DNA of 4,179 nt from a virus. Lineage: Duplodnaviria; Heunggongvirae; Uroviricota; Caudoviricetes. Shown here one piece after another: positions 1-4,179 of the stretch (the stretch's first letter is position 1; the number at the start of each line of letters is the position of its first letter). The notes below the pieces were generated by a model, which was not told the DNA's origin, ran no database searches, and was given only the letters and a program-made list of their open reading frames with translations. The stretch is taken from positions 1 to 4,179 of the IMG/VR virus record IMGVR_UViG_2663763286_000025. One strand, 5' to 3'. A program made the position numbers and the translations under genes.

Positions 1-117
1 ACGTGGGTGGACTGGTATAACAATCGACGATTGCTGGAAAGGCTGGGCCATATTCCTCCGGCAGAAGCAGAAAAAGCTTATTATGCTTCCATCGGAAATA
101 ATGATCTGGCAGCCTGA
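1..117 (+). mobile_element. 3' end of a DDE transposase gene (integrase-core C-terminal tail, IS3-family-like); 5' part lies outside the window
   Basis: Frame 1 is open from base 1 and translates to TWVDWYNNRRLLERLGHIPPAEAEKAYYASIGNNDLAA, stop TGA at 115-117. The W-x-x-W-Y-N-x-R-R...L-G...P-x-E pattern is the typical C-terminal tail of DDE (retroviral-integrase-like) IS transposases. The exact IS and its terminal inverted repeat cannot be determined from the window. Confidence 0.55.
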
Positions 118-421
118 GTTCACAGATAAAATACTCTCCAGGAAACCCGGGGCGGTTCATACTGCTGTCTGCCCAAATTGCTCTCATGAAGAACCCAGTG
201 AAACAGACGACATTGTTTGGTCTTACCGTTCACGGGAAACGCCAGCCACCGACGCTTTCCTGGCTGAAGTGCGGGCGCAGGCGTTTAATGACCTTTGCTC
301 GGTGTTCGTTAAGGACGCGACGGTTGTCGGGCTGGACGATGGCGACATCGTTACGGTGAAAGAAGCGACGGACGCCCTGCTGCATTGTGCGGAACAGCTT
401 CGCAAAGGAGGCAACCAGTGA
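118..421 (+). pseudogene. Possible 3' remnant of a prophage gene whose 5' part was displaced by the IS; boundaries uncertain
   Basis: The track ORF 83..421 begins inside the transposase tail, so its N-terminus is a chimera. Its distal part stays open and ends with TGA 419-421, overlapping the GTG start (418-420) of the next gene in a GTGA arrangement typical of coupled phage genes. No credible start codon with an RBS lies downstream of the transposase stop in this frame. Confidence 0.3.
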
Positions 422-1179
422 GCAAGATTGACTTTCAGGCACTGCGTGAAAAGGCAGAGAAAGCAACTAAAGGAAGCTACATCGTAGGGCATACATCTGT
501 TAACCAGCACGGCAATTTAACAGGAGTTTTTGTTTGTCAAAAATGGAAAGGAGAGCCAGGTGGCGTGATTGCAGAATGTCACGTTAACTGTCTGGTTGAA
601 ACAGATGCTCAGGCTTATGCAAACGCAGAATTCATAGCAGAGGCTAACCCAGCTACCGTACTGGCACTGCTGGATGAACGGGAAAGAAACCAGCAATACA
701 TCAAACGCCGTGACCAGGAGAACGAGGAGATTGCGCTAACGGTAGGGAAGCTGCGTGTTGAGCTTGAGGAGACAAAATCAAAACTCAACGAGCAGCGCGA
801 GTATTACGAAGGTGTTATCTCGGATGGAAGTAAGCGTATTGCTGAACTGGAGAAAAGCGAAGAGCAACTCATCAACGAGCGTGACCATGCTGAGTCTGCT
901 TTAGCTGATATGTATTTTGCAGCAACCGGGGATAGGCCTGAGTGGAGTAACTGGTTCGGTTTTTCAGATGCTGTCAATGCCGTGGTTGACAGAATTGCTG
1001 ATTTAGAAGCTAAACAGCCATCGCCAGTAGTACCGGAAGGATTGATTAAAGCAGTGCGCTTCTATGAACAGGTTAAGCGTGAAAATCCGCCAGTCGAAAC
1101 CGGAGCATGGAAAGACGCTGTTGACTGGGTGCTCAAAGAGGCTTGTCAGGCTGTAAACATTCGCATCAAAGGAGAGTGA
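418..1179 (+). CDS. Ead/Ea22-like prophage protein (253 aa) with a central coiled-coil segment
   Basis: GTG at 418 sits 6 nt after a strong Shine-Dalgarno AAAGGAGG (404-411). The N-terminus SKIDFQALREKAEKATKG and the motif AEFIAEANPATVLALLDERE are recognisable Ea22-like signatures. The central region (ERNQQYIKRRDQENEEIALTVGKLRVELEETKSKLNEQREYY...) is heptad-like and charged. The track start at 385 is TTG without an RBS and is probably an artefact. Stop TGA 1177-1179. Confidence 0.75.
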   Translation: MSKIDFQALREKAEKATKGSYIVGHTSVNQHGNLTGVFVCQKWKGEPGGVIAECHVNCLVETDAQAYANAEFIAEANPATVLALLDERERNQQYIKRRDQENEEIALTVGKLRVELEETKSKLNEQREYYEGVISDGSKRIAELEKSEEQLINERDHAESALADMYFAATGDRPEWSNWFGFSDAVNAVVDRIADLEAKQPSPVVPEGLIKAVRFYEQVKRENPPVETGAWKDAVDWVLKEACQAVNIRIKGE

Positions 1180-1180
1180 G

Positions 1181-1369
1181 ATGAACGGACAAATATCAAT
1201 TATTCGCCCTGGCGCTTGTGACGAAGAGATAAGGCTGATTATCCGCCTTGCGATGGGTAGAACAATAACTGCTCTCATTACTCCAGAAAATCTCGCATTA
1301 GCATTAACCGGAAAGTCAGACCTGCCAGTAGAGCTAAAGCTGCGAAATGTTGAGATTAAGGTGAAATAG
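1181..1369 (+). CDS. Hypothetical small prophage protein (62 aa)
   Basis: ATG at 1181 is preceded by GGAGA (1171-1175) and lies 1 nt after the upstream stop. The ORF fills the gap between two recognisable genes on the same strand with no competing frame. No family recognised. Confidence 0.55.
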   Translation: MNGQISIIRPGACDEEIRLIIRLAMGRTITALITPENLALALTGKSDLPVELKLRNVEIKVK

Positions 1370-1371
1370 CT

Positions 1372-2040
1372 ATGACCACTATTACCAAAGAATGGCTACA
1401 GAAAACGATTACCAGCATTGAGTCAGCACGGGATGAAATACCGTTCGGACTCGATGAAGATCAAAGCAACATGCTTACCGCATTTAAAATTGCACTGGCA
1501 TCACTGGAACGCGAACAGATTCGCCACGAGCATGCCAAATGGTCTGACTCCACATTTGGCTGCGTTGGCCCCATTGGTCCACTGAAACACCTATCAAAAG
1601 AGGCTCTGGAAGCCGCAGCCGAACCTGACGATCTCAGCGAGTGGGCTGATATGCAGTTCCTGTTGTGGGATGCACAGCGCCGTGCTGGTATCAGTGATGC
1701 TGAAATTACCGCTGCTATGGAAAATAAATTGAAGATCAACATGGAACGCCAGTGGCCTGAACCAAAAGATGGTGAGCCTCGCTTGCACATTAAAGAACCC
1801 GACAACTCTCCGGGAACTCCGGATAGTTGGATAAGCTGTAGTGATCGAATGCCTGAAAAGGGCCAGAACGTGCTTATTTCGGTGAATTTCGATAGCTCTC
1901 TGGTTGAACCGCTAATATGCTCCGCACGCTATACCGGAAGCACCTTTCGGCGCGGAGATGCAACGATTAAGCCGGGTAATGGTATTGAGCAAGCAACTCA
2001 CTGGATGCCGCTACCGGAACCGCCGCAGGAGGTGAAGTGA
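1372..2040 (+). CDS. DUF550 (dATP/dGTP pyrophosphohydrolase-like, MazG-type) N-terminal domain fused to a DUF551 C-terminal domain (222 aa)
   Basis: ATG at 1372 lies 2 nt after the upstream stop. The N-terminal half (HAKWSDSTFGCVGPIGPLKHLSKEALEAAAEPDDLSEWADMQFLLWDAQRRAGISDAEI) matches the phage DUF550 pyrophosphohydrolase-like domain as I recall it. The C-terminal half (WISCSDRMPEKGQNVLISVNF...ATHWMPLPEPP) matches DUF551. Stop TGA 2038-2040. Confidence 0.7.
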   Translation: MTTITKEWLQKTITSIESARDEIPFGLDEDQSNMLTAFKIALASLEREQIRHEHAKWSDSTFGCVGPIGPLKHLSKEALEAAAEPDDLSEWADMQFLLWDAQRRAGISDAEITAAMENKLKINMERQWPEPKDGEPRLHIKEPDNSPGTPDSWISCSDRMPEKGQNVLISVNFDSSLVEPLICSARYTGSTFRRGDATIKPGNGIEQATHWMPLPEPPQEVK

Positions 2041-2612
2041 TGAACAACTTAATGATCGACCTTGAGACGATGGGGAAAAATAAGGATGCACCGATCGTTT
2101 CCATTGGCGCGGTGTTCTTCACTCCAGAAACCGGAGACATCGGACAAGAATTCTATACGGTTGTTAGCCTGGAAAGTGCTATGGGGCAAGGAGCTACACC
2201 TGACGGCGATACCATCCTGTGGTGGTTGAAACAAAGCCCTGAAGCACGAGCTGCAATCTGTATTGATGATACTTTGTCGATCAGCGATGCTCTCTCAGAA
2301 CTAAATCATTTCATTAACCGGCACGCAGACAATACGAAATATTTAAAAGTCTGGGGTAACGGAGCCACCTTCGACAACGTAATTTTACGTGGAGCTTATG
2401 AGCGAGCAGGACAAATCTGCCCGTGGGCATACTGGAATGACCACGATGTACGCACGATCGTTACGCTTGGGCGTTCCATCGGATTCGACCCCAAAATGGA
2501 CATGCCTTTCGATGGCGAACGGCACAACGCCCTGGCTGATGCCCGTCATCAGGCAAAATATGTTTCCGCTATCTGGCAGAAATTAATTCCTGCCACCAGC
2601 ACAGAATTATGA
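2040..2612 (+). CDS. DnaQ-like DEDDh 3'-5' exonuclease, phage type (190 aa)
   Basis: ATG 2040-2042 overlaps the upstream TGA by one base, with AGGAGGTG at 2027-2034. The three Exo motifs are visible: MIDLET (Exo I, D and E), GNGATFDN (Exo II, D) and ERHNALADARH (Exo III, H-x4-D). The track start at GTG 2037 is an in-frame alternative. Confidence 0.75.
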   Translation: MNNLMIDLETMGKNKDAPIVSIGAVFFTPETGDIGQEFYTVVSLESAMGQGATPDGDTILWWLKQSPEARAAICIDDTLSISDALSELNHFINRHADNTKYLKVWGNGATFDNVILRGAYERAGQICPWAYWNDHDVRTIVTLGRSIGFDPKMDMPFDGERHNALADARHQAKYVSAIWQKLIPATSTEL

Positions 2613-2648
2613 TTTTCCCGGGTGCAGCCGGTTTTGATGGAGAAAATT

Positions 2649-2930
2649 ATGAACACCTTGTTTTTACTGATGGCTGAATTCAATACCTCAAACATTGAAC
2701 TCTCAGCAGTTAGCCAAAAGTACTTTGGTATGAGTCCAGCCACAGCAGAAGCAAAAGCAAACGCTTGTAAGTTGCCCGTTCCAACATATCGCATCGGCAC
2801 ATCACAAAAAGCAAAACGTTGCATCAATATTCAGGATCTTGCGGAATACATAGACAAAAGACGAGAAGAAGGACGTATCGAGTGGGAACAGGTCAGAACA
2901 GGCAAACAGAAGGGCAAAGAACATCACTAA
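2649..2930 (+). CDS. PrtN-family / excisionase-like small DNA-binding protein (93 aa)
   Basis: The N-terminus MNTLFLLMAEF and the C-terminal DLAEYIDKRREEGR resemble the pyocin-activator PrtN family found as Xis-like proteins next to prophage integrases. ATG 2649 lies 6 nt after GGAG (2639-2642). In-frame alternatives at GTG 2622 and ATG 2637 lack an RBS. Stop TAA 2928-2930. Confidence 0.65.
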   Translation: MNTLFLLMAEFNTSNIELSAVSQKYFGMSPATAEAKANACKLPVPTYRIGTSQKAKRCINIQDLAEYIDKRREEGRIEWEQVRTGKQKGKEHH

Positions 2931-2932
2931 AG

Positions 2933-2958
2933 AAAAAACCCGCCTAAAGGCGGGTTTT
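2933..2958. terminator. Rho-independent hairpin terminator, bidirectional but stronger for the minus-strand transcript
   Basis: Perfect 6-bp GC-rich stem CCCGCC (2939-2944) and GGCGGG (2949-2954) with loop TAAA. It is flanked by an A6 tract (2933-2938) and a T4 tract (2955-2958), so the minus-strand RNA ends in six U and the plus-strand RNA in four U. It lies 2 nt after the PrtN-like stop and 19 nt after the stop of the minus-strand small ORF. Confidence 0.7.
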
Positions 2959-2977
2959 CAAAAAGCACCAGCTATGA

Positions 2978-3151
2978 TCATGCTGCTTTGCGACGACGAA
3001 GCTTACCCTGCTGCTCTTTACCAGAGACAGTAGCGTGAGTGAACGCATTAGGAGCAGCCTTCATCAGAACTTCAACAGCAGCCCCCATACCTGCGAATGC
3101 TTTCATTGTGTCGAACTTAAGCTGTGGCTTAGTTGCTTTTTGATCTTCCAT
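2978..3151 (-). CDS. Small hypothetical protein (57 aa), last gene of the minus-strand cassette; not in the supplied ORF track
   Basis: Manual translation of the reverse strand gives MEDQKATKPQLKFDTMKAFAGMGAAVEVLMKAAPNAFTHATVSGKEQQGKLRRRKAA. ATG is at 3151-3149 with GGAG 6 nt upstream on the minus strand, and TGA at 2980-2978. It sits 39 nt downstream of the 139-aa gene and just upstream of the terminator. No family recognised; the C-terminus is basic. Confidence 0.4.
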   Translation of the reverse strand: MEDQKATKPQLKFDTMKAFAGMGAAVEVLMKAAPNAFTHATVSGKEQQGKLRRRKAA

Positions 3152-3190
3152 AGAAAACTCCAGAAGCTATACCGAAACAATTCCTGTTGT

Positions 3191-3610
3191 TTACTCATCA
3201 TCAATAGATGATACGCAATATTTATTTTTAAATTTAAGGTTCTTTGGCGTAACTTCATCAGATATATCAAAACCGTCCAGAATTCTATTGAATGTAGCTT
3301 CTGGCATATCATCATGAACAGAAATCTCACCCGATCGCTGCTTTCTAACCATGTTATCCACTCGCCAAATTATAGCTTCAGCGTAAACAACATAACTTGG
3401 ATGCTTGATAAAGCGATGATCACCGGAATTCAAGACGCAAGACGGATCGTGGGGGACCCCATCCTTGATACTAGAAATATTAACAACTAAAACACAATAA
3501 CAATCGTTAACGGGGTAATAAACAGGATCATTACAAATCACATGAAGATGATTGCATGGCCCAGTTGGGGCAAGCACAGTTCCTTTCCTGTATGGCTGAT
3601 AATCCGTCAT
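3191..3610 (-). CDS. Hypothetical 139-aa Cys/His-rich protein, translationally coupled to the Panacea-domain gene; candidate toxin/effector
   Basis: Its start ATG (3610-3608) overlaps the upstream stop TGA (3609-3607) in an ATGA arrangement and has no independent Shine-Dalgarno. The protein has Cys at 19, 26, 37, 39, 58 and 132 and His at 21, 23, 54, 65, 70 and 99 (for example GPCNHLHVICNDP and NDCYCV). No hydrophobic transmembrane stretch and no family I can name. Confidence 0.6.
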   Translation of the reverse strand: MTDYQPYRKGTVLAPTGPCNHLHVICNDPVYYPVNDCYCVLVVNISSIKDGVPHDPSCVLNSGDHRFIKHPSYVVYAEAIIWRVDNMVRKQRSGEISVHDDMPEATFNRILDGFDISDEVTPKNLKFKNKYCVSSIDDE

Positions 3611-4179
3611 GATAATTGCAAAGAAAATTCCTTAAGTTTCTGAGATTCTTCCATTTTGCCAATTATGCGATTAGCCTCATCCTCGCTTTTACCCTCACTG
3701 ATCAGCATTTCTTTCAGGTCTATAGGCTTACGAGAATTGCCAGGATTGTGCCACTCTGGACAAACGCTTTCTAAATGCGTCATGTTTGCGAGATCAAATC
3801 GGTTCATATGCCCATACAGAGAATAGATTTCATCTAAAATCCGGATATCTGCACGGCTCAACTCATCAAAGACCTCGTCTGCATCCATTTCCCTCGGATC
3901 TGAACGCAACAACACATCATGCCCGTTCGTCTCTATCAAGTTGTACCAGTAGTCACCAATGCCTTCAGCCTTACCACGAATCAAGTTCAGCGTATTCGAC
4001 ATGACTGGACCAAATTTCATAGAGTAAAGGCTATCTTCGCCGATCATCCTGCCATGCTTCAAAATCGACTTGCGGTTAGACAGATAGAGCAGCTTCATCA
4101 ATTTCAGATATGCCATGCGCCCACCTCGCTTAAGAAGTAGGTATGCAGCCATTTGAGCTACTTTTTCTTCGCAAAACAT
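3607..4179 (-). CDS. Panacea-domain (DUF4065, SocA/PanA-like) protein, putative antitoxin (190 aa); start codon at the window edge
   Basis: The N-terminal region AAYLLLKRGG...YLKLMKLLYLSNRKS...MKFGPVMSNTLNLIRG matches the Panacea pattern (A-x-Y-f-l ... KLxKLLY ... GPV). The ATG is the last three bases of the window (4179-4177), so the promoter, and any 5' extension, cannot be seen. Stop TGA 3609-3607. Confidence 0.7.
   Translation of the reverse strand: MFCEEKVAQMAAYLLLKRGGRMAYLKLMKLLYLSNRKSILKHGRMIGEDSLYSMKFGPVMSNTLNLIRGKAEGIGDYWYNLIETNGHDVLLRSDPREMDADEVFDELSRADIRILDEIYSLYGHMNRFDLANMTHLESVCPEWHNPGNSRKPIDLKEMLISEGKSEDEANRIIGKMEESQKLKEFSLQLS

Follow-up and report, generated by a model that had tools for sequence, protein, structure and literature searches.

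A stretch of viral DNA of 4,179 nucleotides (nt), taken from a member of the Caudoviricetes (positions 1 to 4,179 of IMG/VR record IMGVR_UViG_2663763286_000025) and referred to below as the window, ends in three minus-strand genes: one for a Panacea-domain protein (panA), one for a protein of 139 amino acids (aa) (panT), and one for a small basic protein of 57 aa. Positions 3165-4179, together with about 190 bp beyond the window, are likely to form a two-gene type II toxin-antitoxin (TA) module of the PanAT kind, in which a cluster T6 toxin of predicted MazF fold is paired with the antitoxin PanA and carried as prophage cargo. An earlier note on this DNA had taken all three genes for one undescribed TA or anti-phage defence cassette. 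Its view of a TA-like module as prophage cargo is borne out for the pair, but the unit consists of two genes and not three. Nor is the partner undescribed, as the toxin family falls in a PanT cluster, T6, in the available part of a published survey (PMC8832971). The PanAT pairing and the T6 cluster are already known, and the window pair extends a published family rather than representing a new kind of system.

The PanA-toxin pair and cluster T6

The three open reading frames (ORFs) are intact and convergent with a gene for a PrtN-family excisionase (xis), as the earlier note had described (Table 1). PanA matches the Pfam family PF13274 (Panacea) with an E value of 1.8e-18 (67.9 bits; cut-off 25.7), and its RefSeq entry (WP_000458583.1) is named 'Panacea domain-containing protein'. 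The Panacea/DUF4065 domain occupies residues 27-137 and is followed by a C-terminal extension that is conserved in its own right, with the motif PEW.DP.GSS.PI and, at its end, an acidic, helix-like tail. In a paired PanA-toxin alignment of the PanAs of T6 toxins, the conserved columns of this extension are T134, H135, E142, W143, P146 and I153. The stop codon of panA overlaps the start codon of panT in an ATGA, a signature of translational coupling between the two genes, and the partner protein is rich in cysteine and histidine (six of each); both features had been correctly noted before. SocA was tried as an identity for PanA and rejected: with the NCBIfam SocA equivalog, PanA reaches only 13.5 of the 190 bits required, and the window pair is therefore not a SocAB system.

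To describe the distribution of the pair, every ORF of the first 39 loci with a toxin relative was searched with jackhmmer, and Pseudomonas loci were added afterwards. In 35/35 loci with upstream DNA, the gene immediately upstream of the toxin homologue encodes PanA, at a spacing of -4 to +28 nt; the three loci without an upstream PanA all start at the end of a contig. In five other phages, too, the upstream partner matches PF13274. No third conserved gene was found in the collected loci. By the PanAT criterion applied (genes no more than 100 nt apart, conserved across species and in no longer conserved operon), the window genes form a pair. Its host range extends from Enterobacterales to Alphaproteobacteria, with the addition of a Helicobacter prophage. 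In Pseudomonas phage Sirocco the toxin homologue (L016 1486-1884) is unannotated, and a 44-aa antisense ORF is annotated instead. In a double jelly-roll element of the Vinavirales from Vibrio (L015 1-958), PanA is annotated from an internal start, and tblastn extends it to the first base of the record. Thus, with these and the other loci (Table 1), PanAT-T6 modules are found in at least four unrelated phage types.

Antitoxins with a Panacea domain were surveyed, and the toxins paired with them sorted into clusters, by Kurata et al. 2022 (PMC8832971; PNAS 119:e2102212119). The available rows of their Dataset S1 give cluster T6 as antitoxin first, with toxins annotated as hypothetical, and include Proteus vulgaris, Pluralibacter gergoviae, Pantoea septica LMG 5345, 'Yersiniaceae bacterium 2016Iso4', Photorhabdus, Halomonas, Gluconacetobacter diazotrophicus PA1 5 and Pseudomonas moraviensis BS3668. 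An independent genome scan found window-toxin relatives in three strains that these rows list under T6 (56, 55 and 36% identity), and the measured gene spacings equal those listed (Table 1). The window toxin is also 43% identical over 120 residues to P. moraviensis SDU72800.1 (E 6e-34). Sister Pseudomonas loci, whose toxins fall in the same 90% identity cluster as the P. moraviensis protein, have a PanA overlap of -1, as the available rows give for P. moraviensis. On these comparisons, the window toxin is assigned to PanT cluster T6. The E. coli rows in the available part of Dataset S1 contain no T6 pair, and the accessions of the window proteins do not appear in the available parts of the supplementary files.

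T6 includes an experimentally validated member, from P. moraviensis. In this pair of PanA WP_083354365.1 and PanT WP_083201923.1, the toxin was found to be toxic and neutralised by PanA, and the two proteins co-purified (PMC8832971). This PanT preferentially inhibits incorporation of 35S-methionine, and HHpred relates it to the EndoA/PemK/MazF RNases (PMC8832971).

The swapped segment and the 57-aa gene

An mEp460-like lambdoid prophage that integrates into dusA carries the pair, as a low-GC cargo of 1.2 kb, at its attachment-site end. Over positions 2900-4179 the window has 100% identity to the Shiga toxin-producing E. coli (STEC) strain 2013C-3492, the closest complete genome, and is near-identical to many O121:H19 genomes. 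In 2013C-3492 a fragment of dusA (tRNA-dihydrouridine synthase) adjoins PanA and is followed by zur, dinF and lexA; the dusA 5' fragment is found at positions 9533-9637 of the E. coli backbone locus L001, directly past panA and just outside the end of the window. As the fragment comes right after panA, the prophage in this strain is therefore integrated in dusA, with PanA as its terminal gene. The free phage Lys8385Vzw has the order xis, 57-aa gene, 139-aa gene, PanA, int, dinI, and in the free phage the attachment site is located between panA and int (L002 7278-7731). The placement of the genes at a xis/int junction, as put forward in the earlier note, is accurate for Lys8385Vzw, but no int gene is present within the window and in 2013C-3492 PanA is the last prophage gene. 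Transcription of the PanAT module runs opposite to the early-left operon of the phage.

At 96-98% identity, the window's xis, terminator and 57-aa gene also occur in phage mEp460 and in O157:H7 strains, where a 177-aa gene stands in place of PanA and the 139-aa gene. When L001 was compared with the O157 locus L040 by blastn, homology stopped at L001 8265 (window 3164), between the 57-aa and 139-aa genes, and restarted at L001 9473 (window ~4372, beyond the window end). Homology to mEp460 breaks off at the same point (window ~3164). From these breakpoints, a 1.2-kb segment, comprising the toxin gene, panA and ~192 bp of upstream DNA outside the window, therefore alternates with a segment of 0.8 kb. 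The GC content of the swapped module is 0.414 against 0.484 for the backbone. The 57-aa gene has 0.483, so the distinct composition that had been ascribed to all three genes applies to the PanA/139-aa pair but not to the 57-aa gene, which resembles the backbone. In a census of 5426 complete E. coli genomes, the pair was found in 208 (~4%, including STEC O121, O103 and related lineages), the alternative 0.8-kb segment in 358 and the 57-aa gene in 562, and the two cargoes jointly explain essentially every copy of the 57-aa gene. As a promoter for panA, a single -35/-10-like site (TTGACC-17-TAAACT) was seen in the module-specific upstream DNA of L001, where such sites are no commoner than in shuffled sequence.

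These data bear directly on the idea of a tripartite TA or defence system in which the small basic protein would act as a regulator, chaperone or trigger. The arrangement in E. coli is suggestive of one: only 39 bp, holding a GGAG ribosome-binding site, separate the toxin stop from the 57-aa start, neither a terminator nor a promoter was detected between the two genes, the 57-aa gene adjoins the pair in 205/205 E. coli genomes with the pair, and a third gene is conserved in some PanAT clusters (PMC8832971). However, beyond the mEp460-like backbone of E. coli, none of the 30 related PanA-toxin loci has the 57-aa gene, and among the collected loci it is present only in three E. coli backbone loci (L001-L003). 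Conversely, phage mEp460, O157:H7 and ~358 complete E. coli genomes have the gene but not the pair. The gene also falls outside the swapped stretch, has backbone GC, and in other genera is linked to another gene, phrog_4350. A tripartite system is thus highly improbable. The survey of co-occurrence suggested in the earlier note gives the same answer, the 57-aa gene being in 562 genomes and the pair in 208, and the homology break at ~3164 divides the proposed cassette.

The 57-aa gene is phage backbone and not a component of PanAT. It is probably co-transcribed with whichever cargo lies upstream, PanAT included, and shared transcription is the only tie found between the two. In Salmonella, Enterobacter and Franconibacter the 57-aa gene is always located ~180-195 bp downstream of a phrog_4350 gene encoding 177-179 aa. 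Where E. coli and Salmonella prophages occupy dusA, the phrog_4350 and phrog_2741 genes adjoin xis; phages of Enterobacter and Franconibacter have the phrog_4350/57-aa genes in the late region, from Q/DUF968 to the lysis genes. Since it is tied to phrog_4350 elsewhere, the 57-aa gene is therefore a follower of another cargo gene that was left behind when PanAT replaced it. Together, the phrog_4350 and 57-aa genes look like an uncharacterised mobile two-gene cargo unit. The 177-179-aa phrog_4350 protein has no match in Pfam, PDB-profile or PADLOC searches; a resemblance of its C-terminal half to GNAT proteins, noted by eye, was not supported by the Pfam and PDB-profile searches. The 57-aa protein is basic, as had been noted (isoelectric point 10.2), and its AlphaFold2 model, in which positions 15-40 are helical and the basic tail is disordered, has a low mean predicted local distance difference test score (pLDDT 63.8); the model was too uncertain for a fold search.

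The hairpin downstream of the 57-aa gene (11 pairs, six of them GC, with a T-run on the minus strand in the terminator scan) is real and strong: it folds at -19.3 kcal/mol (z -3.9), and 0/200 shuffled sequences fold as well. It was previously regarded as dedicated to the cassette, which does not hold because it lies in conserved backbone, within the segment common to mEp460 and O157, and is shared with xis. The hairpin is a bidirectional intrinsic terminator common to the convergent xis gene and the leftward transcript. A search of window 2926-2998 against Rfam gave only sub-threshold matches (rnk_pseudo, 32 bits against a cut-off of 55; P9; sroH), all centered on this hairpin and most likely chance matches driven by it. 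A type I or type III RNA antitoxin was rejected as a candidate, the Rfam matches being sub-threshold and at the terminator hairpin only.

Predicted fold, action and role

The 139-aa protein has no match in Pfam, NCBIfam or PADLOC and falls only in phrog_19071, a family without an assigned function. At E values up to 1e-3 the toxin family comprises 2660 clusters at 50% identity. RefSeq/PGAP selects an internal GTG as the start (128 aa, WP_014640052.1) and phage records give 139 aa. Homologues keep the N-terminus MT.YQPYRKGTVL, including the 11 residues before the RefSeq GTG (window 3575-3610). The ATG at 3610 is thus the more likely start, because this N-terminus is conserved and the ATG overlaps the panA stop. 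One sequence identical to the toxin, a fragment, is labelled Shigella flexneri.

An AlphaFold2 model of the toxin built from 35 sequences (pLDDT 91.9, predicted template modeling score 0.85) has a five-strand barrel followed by three helices. In a Foldseek search of the PDB with this model, ranks 1-46 are all MazF chains, with E. coli MazF at the top (E 1e-3, probability 1.0), and the fold also matches Kid and CcdB. As modelled, the 139-aa protein has an SH3-like barrel of the MazF/Kid/CcdB type plus C-terminal helices. H21 is invariant across 90 diverse relatives of the toxin, and L22, D55, C58, G63, H65, F67, S72, Y76, G113 and S117 are conserved in at least 90% of them. From this pattern, we infer H21, D55, C58 and H65 to be candidate catalytic residues.

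In the mechanism proposed for the pair, the toxin would most likely block translation by cutting RNA, through an active site probably built from the conserved His, Asp, Cys and Ser of the β2 strand and of a long loop (residues 48-71). PanA would neutralise the toxin by direct binding, and its C-terminal extension is a candidate neutralising element. Stand-alone Panacea domains can neutralise directly, and in other PanAs added segments do so (Ernits et al. 2023, PMC10440598).

Several observations weigh against a TA module with a MazF-fold toxin. The Pfam PemK_toxin/MazF model matches 0/90 diverse members of the toxin family, and an hhalign comparison with E. coli MazF was not significant (probability <1%); the kinship with MazF is therefore one of fold. 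Profile searches of PDB sequences with the toxin also yielded nothing meaningful. The catalytic Arg/Thr pair of MazF is not evidently conserved; in a non-significant hhalign alignment H21 falls beside MazF H28/R29, and S46-S47 near T52. That SDU72800.1 is the validated WP_083201923.1 is presumed on the basis of species and cluster, not of a sequence comparison. Several candidate PanTs were non-toxic in E. coli in the screen of Kurata et al. (PMC8832971). For a function against phage in particular, PADLOC-DB 2.0 has no match at E values up to 1 for any of the three window proteins, and a literature search found no published phage-defence test of any PanAT.

Some of these points could be accommodated if the 139-aa protein did not arrest growth in E. 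coli and instead had another phage-related function, with PanA as its partner and not its antidote. The lack of a sequence-level link to PemK/MazF, the near-invariant H21, D55, C58 and H65, which differ from the MazF catalytic residues, and the PanTs that proved non-toxic when assayed (PMC8832971) would all suit such a protein. So would the name 'terminase', which several Pasteurellaceae T6 toxins (~130 aa, MazF-fold) carry in RefSeq according to the available rows of Dataset S1. However, the 'terminase' labels look like annotation carry-over, the two genes are strictly coupled with the stop/start overlap typical of TA pairs, and one T6 member is toxic, PanA-neutralised and translation-inhibiting (PMC8832971). 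A non-toxic partner protein is therefore improbable, and a TA pair is preferred.

In the lysogen, the TA pair would most likely function as an abortive-infection or exclusion module, in prophage retention, or in both, and a putative anti-phage or prophage-stabilising role is plausible. The pair occupies lysogen-side cargo slots in unrelated phages, and its placement and orientation fit abortive infection or exclusion and prophage addiction equally well. A working TA pair that serves addiction and not phage defence, whether by stabilising the prophage at the dusA junction or through selfish upkeep, would explain why the pair is at the extreme attachment-site end of the prophage and why it persists in prophages that appear degraded by insertion sequence (IS) elements. 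The family is also stand-alone on the chromosome in Pseudomonas, outside phage ('NotPhage' in the rows available from Dataset S1), and an addiction role is discussed by Kurata et al. (PMC8832971). However, the slots used in unrelated phages (between cI and N in Pantoea, next to int in Yersinia and Shewanella, beside the portal gene of a P2-like phage) are classical sites of lysogen-expressed cargo; the placement suits defence cargo at least as well, and the roles are not exclusive. Addiction as the main role, in place of phage defence, is thus rather unlikely, though far from negligible.

A further, speculative possibility, which we hold only tentatively, is that the slot from xis/57-aa to the dusA site is an undescribed defence hotspot of mEp460-like prophages. 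Its occupants would be PanAT-T6, as the first abortive-infection PanAT, or the phrog_4350 + 57-aa pair, as a second defence or lysogenic-conversion module. Panacea has been proposed as a sensor (Ernits et al. 2023, PMC10440598), and in PanAT-T6 it might sense a phage cue as hypothesised there. The phrog_4350 + 57-aa pair also moves into phage late regions. If the PanAT pair does protect lysogens from other phages, this would be the first direct link of Panacea antitoxins to phage defence.

Additions to what is published are a T6 instance in an E. coli prophage, a fold-level identification for this branch, a corrected start codon, a mapped swap module and the 57-aa/phrog_4350 partnership. A pair annotated only as 'Panacea domain-containing protein' and 'hypothetical protein' gains a testable identity, and a two-state cargo slot is mapped in dusA prophages.

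Window setting and comparison with known systems

Elsewhere the window consists of DNA of the lambdoid early-left region, with an Ead/Ea22 gene and a gene for an Rv2179c-like 3'-5' exonuclease. At 1372-2040, one ORF joins a dATP/dGTP pyrophosphohydrolase domain (PF04447) to DUF551, and the combinations of these two regions vary among related phages. At its start (positions 1-117), the window has the final 36 codons of a transposase gene of the IS3 family (IS600-like). Coverage of the whole window stays below 80% in every complete E. coli genome of the collection searched, and the best matches, at 74-79%, are mosaics; the DNA therefore comes from some other strain, possibly Shigella in view of the toxin fragment so labelled.

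Table 1. Features of the window and of related loci. Spacing is given in nt between PanA and toxin genes.
Feature	Location	Coordinates	Strand	Remarks
panA	window	4179-3607	minus	190-aa ORF, intact
panT	window	3610-3191	minus	139-aa ORF, intact
Small basic gene (phrog_2741)	window	3151-2978	minus	57-aa ORF, intact
PrtN-family excisionase (xis)	window	2622/2649-2930	plus	PF11112 E 1.3e-22; phrog_1300 excisionase E 2.8e-39; RefSeq CDS
Terminator hairpin	window	2934-2959	.	11 pairs, T-run
Swappable PanAT module, in-window part	window	3165-4179	minus	blastn breakpoints; GC 0.414
phrog_4350-phrog_2741 unit	L003	4076-4979
phrog_4350-phrog_2741 unit	L040	3501-4404
phrog_4350-phrog_2741 unit	L041-L051	about 2774-3674 in each
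PanA-toxin pair, Pantoea septica LMG 5345	L023			spacing -4, measured as in available Dataset S1 rows
PanA-toxin pair, Chimaeribacter coloradensis 2016-Iso4	L022			spacing -1, measured as in available Dataset S1 rows
PanA-toxin pair, G. diazotrophicus PA1 5	L034			spacing +15, measured as in available Dataset S1 rows
PanA-toxin locus, Shewanella	integrative island			next to int
PanA-toxin locus, Pantoea	lambdoid prophage			between cI repressor and N
PanA-toxin locus, E. coli	second E. coli phage type
PanA-toxin locus, Yersinia	phage			next to int
PanA-toxin locus, Vibrio	Vinavirales element
PanA-toxin locus, Pseudomonas	P2-like phage			beside portal gene
PanA-toxin loci, Klebsiella and Helicobacter	phages
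PanA-toxin loci, Pseudomonas	chromosome			stand-alone, PanA directly upstream
Further toxin-relative loci	21 species genomes

The closest counterpart of the window pair is the T6 pair of P. moraviensis, with which it shares the antitoxin-first order and a stop/start overlap of -1 or -4. As in T6 generally, the antitoxin is a stand-alone Panacea protein of ~185-190 aa without an N-terminal domain, and the toxin is a hypothetical protein of ~132-139 aa with a predicted MazF-like structure. However, the validated Pseudomonas pair is chromosomal ('NotPhage'), whereas the window pair is borne by a dusA-integrating lambdoid prophage of STEC and other E. coli.

MazEF and Kid-Kis (PemIK) are likewise two-gene operons with the antitoxin first, and a homologue of the window toxin targets translation. 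In contrast to these systems, the window antitoxin is a Panacea domain and not a DNA-binding protein of the AbrB/MazE type. The toxin differs from MazF in an extra C-terminal helical region of ~35 residues, and in that its conserved residues are His, Asp and Cys and not the R29 and T52 of MazF.

Two further systems share the antitoxin domain but not the toxin. The PanAT of E. coli STEC O31 (PanA WP_000287252.1, PanT WP_000019185.1, cluster T3) is a validated TA pair that also has an E. coli Panacea antitoxin. Its toxin, however, is a small membrane-depolarising peptide unrelated to the window toxin with its predicted MazF fold, and the accessions differ. In the type VI TA system SocAB of Caulobacter, SocA has the same Panacea/DUF4065 domain as the window antitoxin, while SocB, a DnaN-binding inhibitor of replication that is degraded by ClpXP through SocA, is unrelated to the window toxin.

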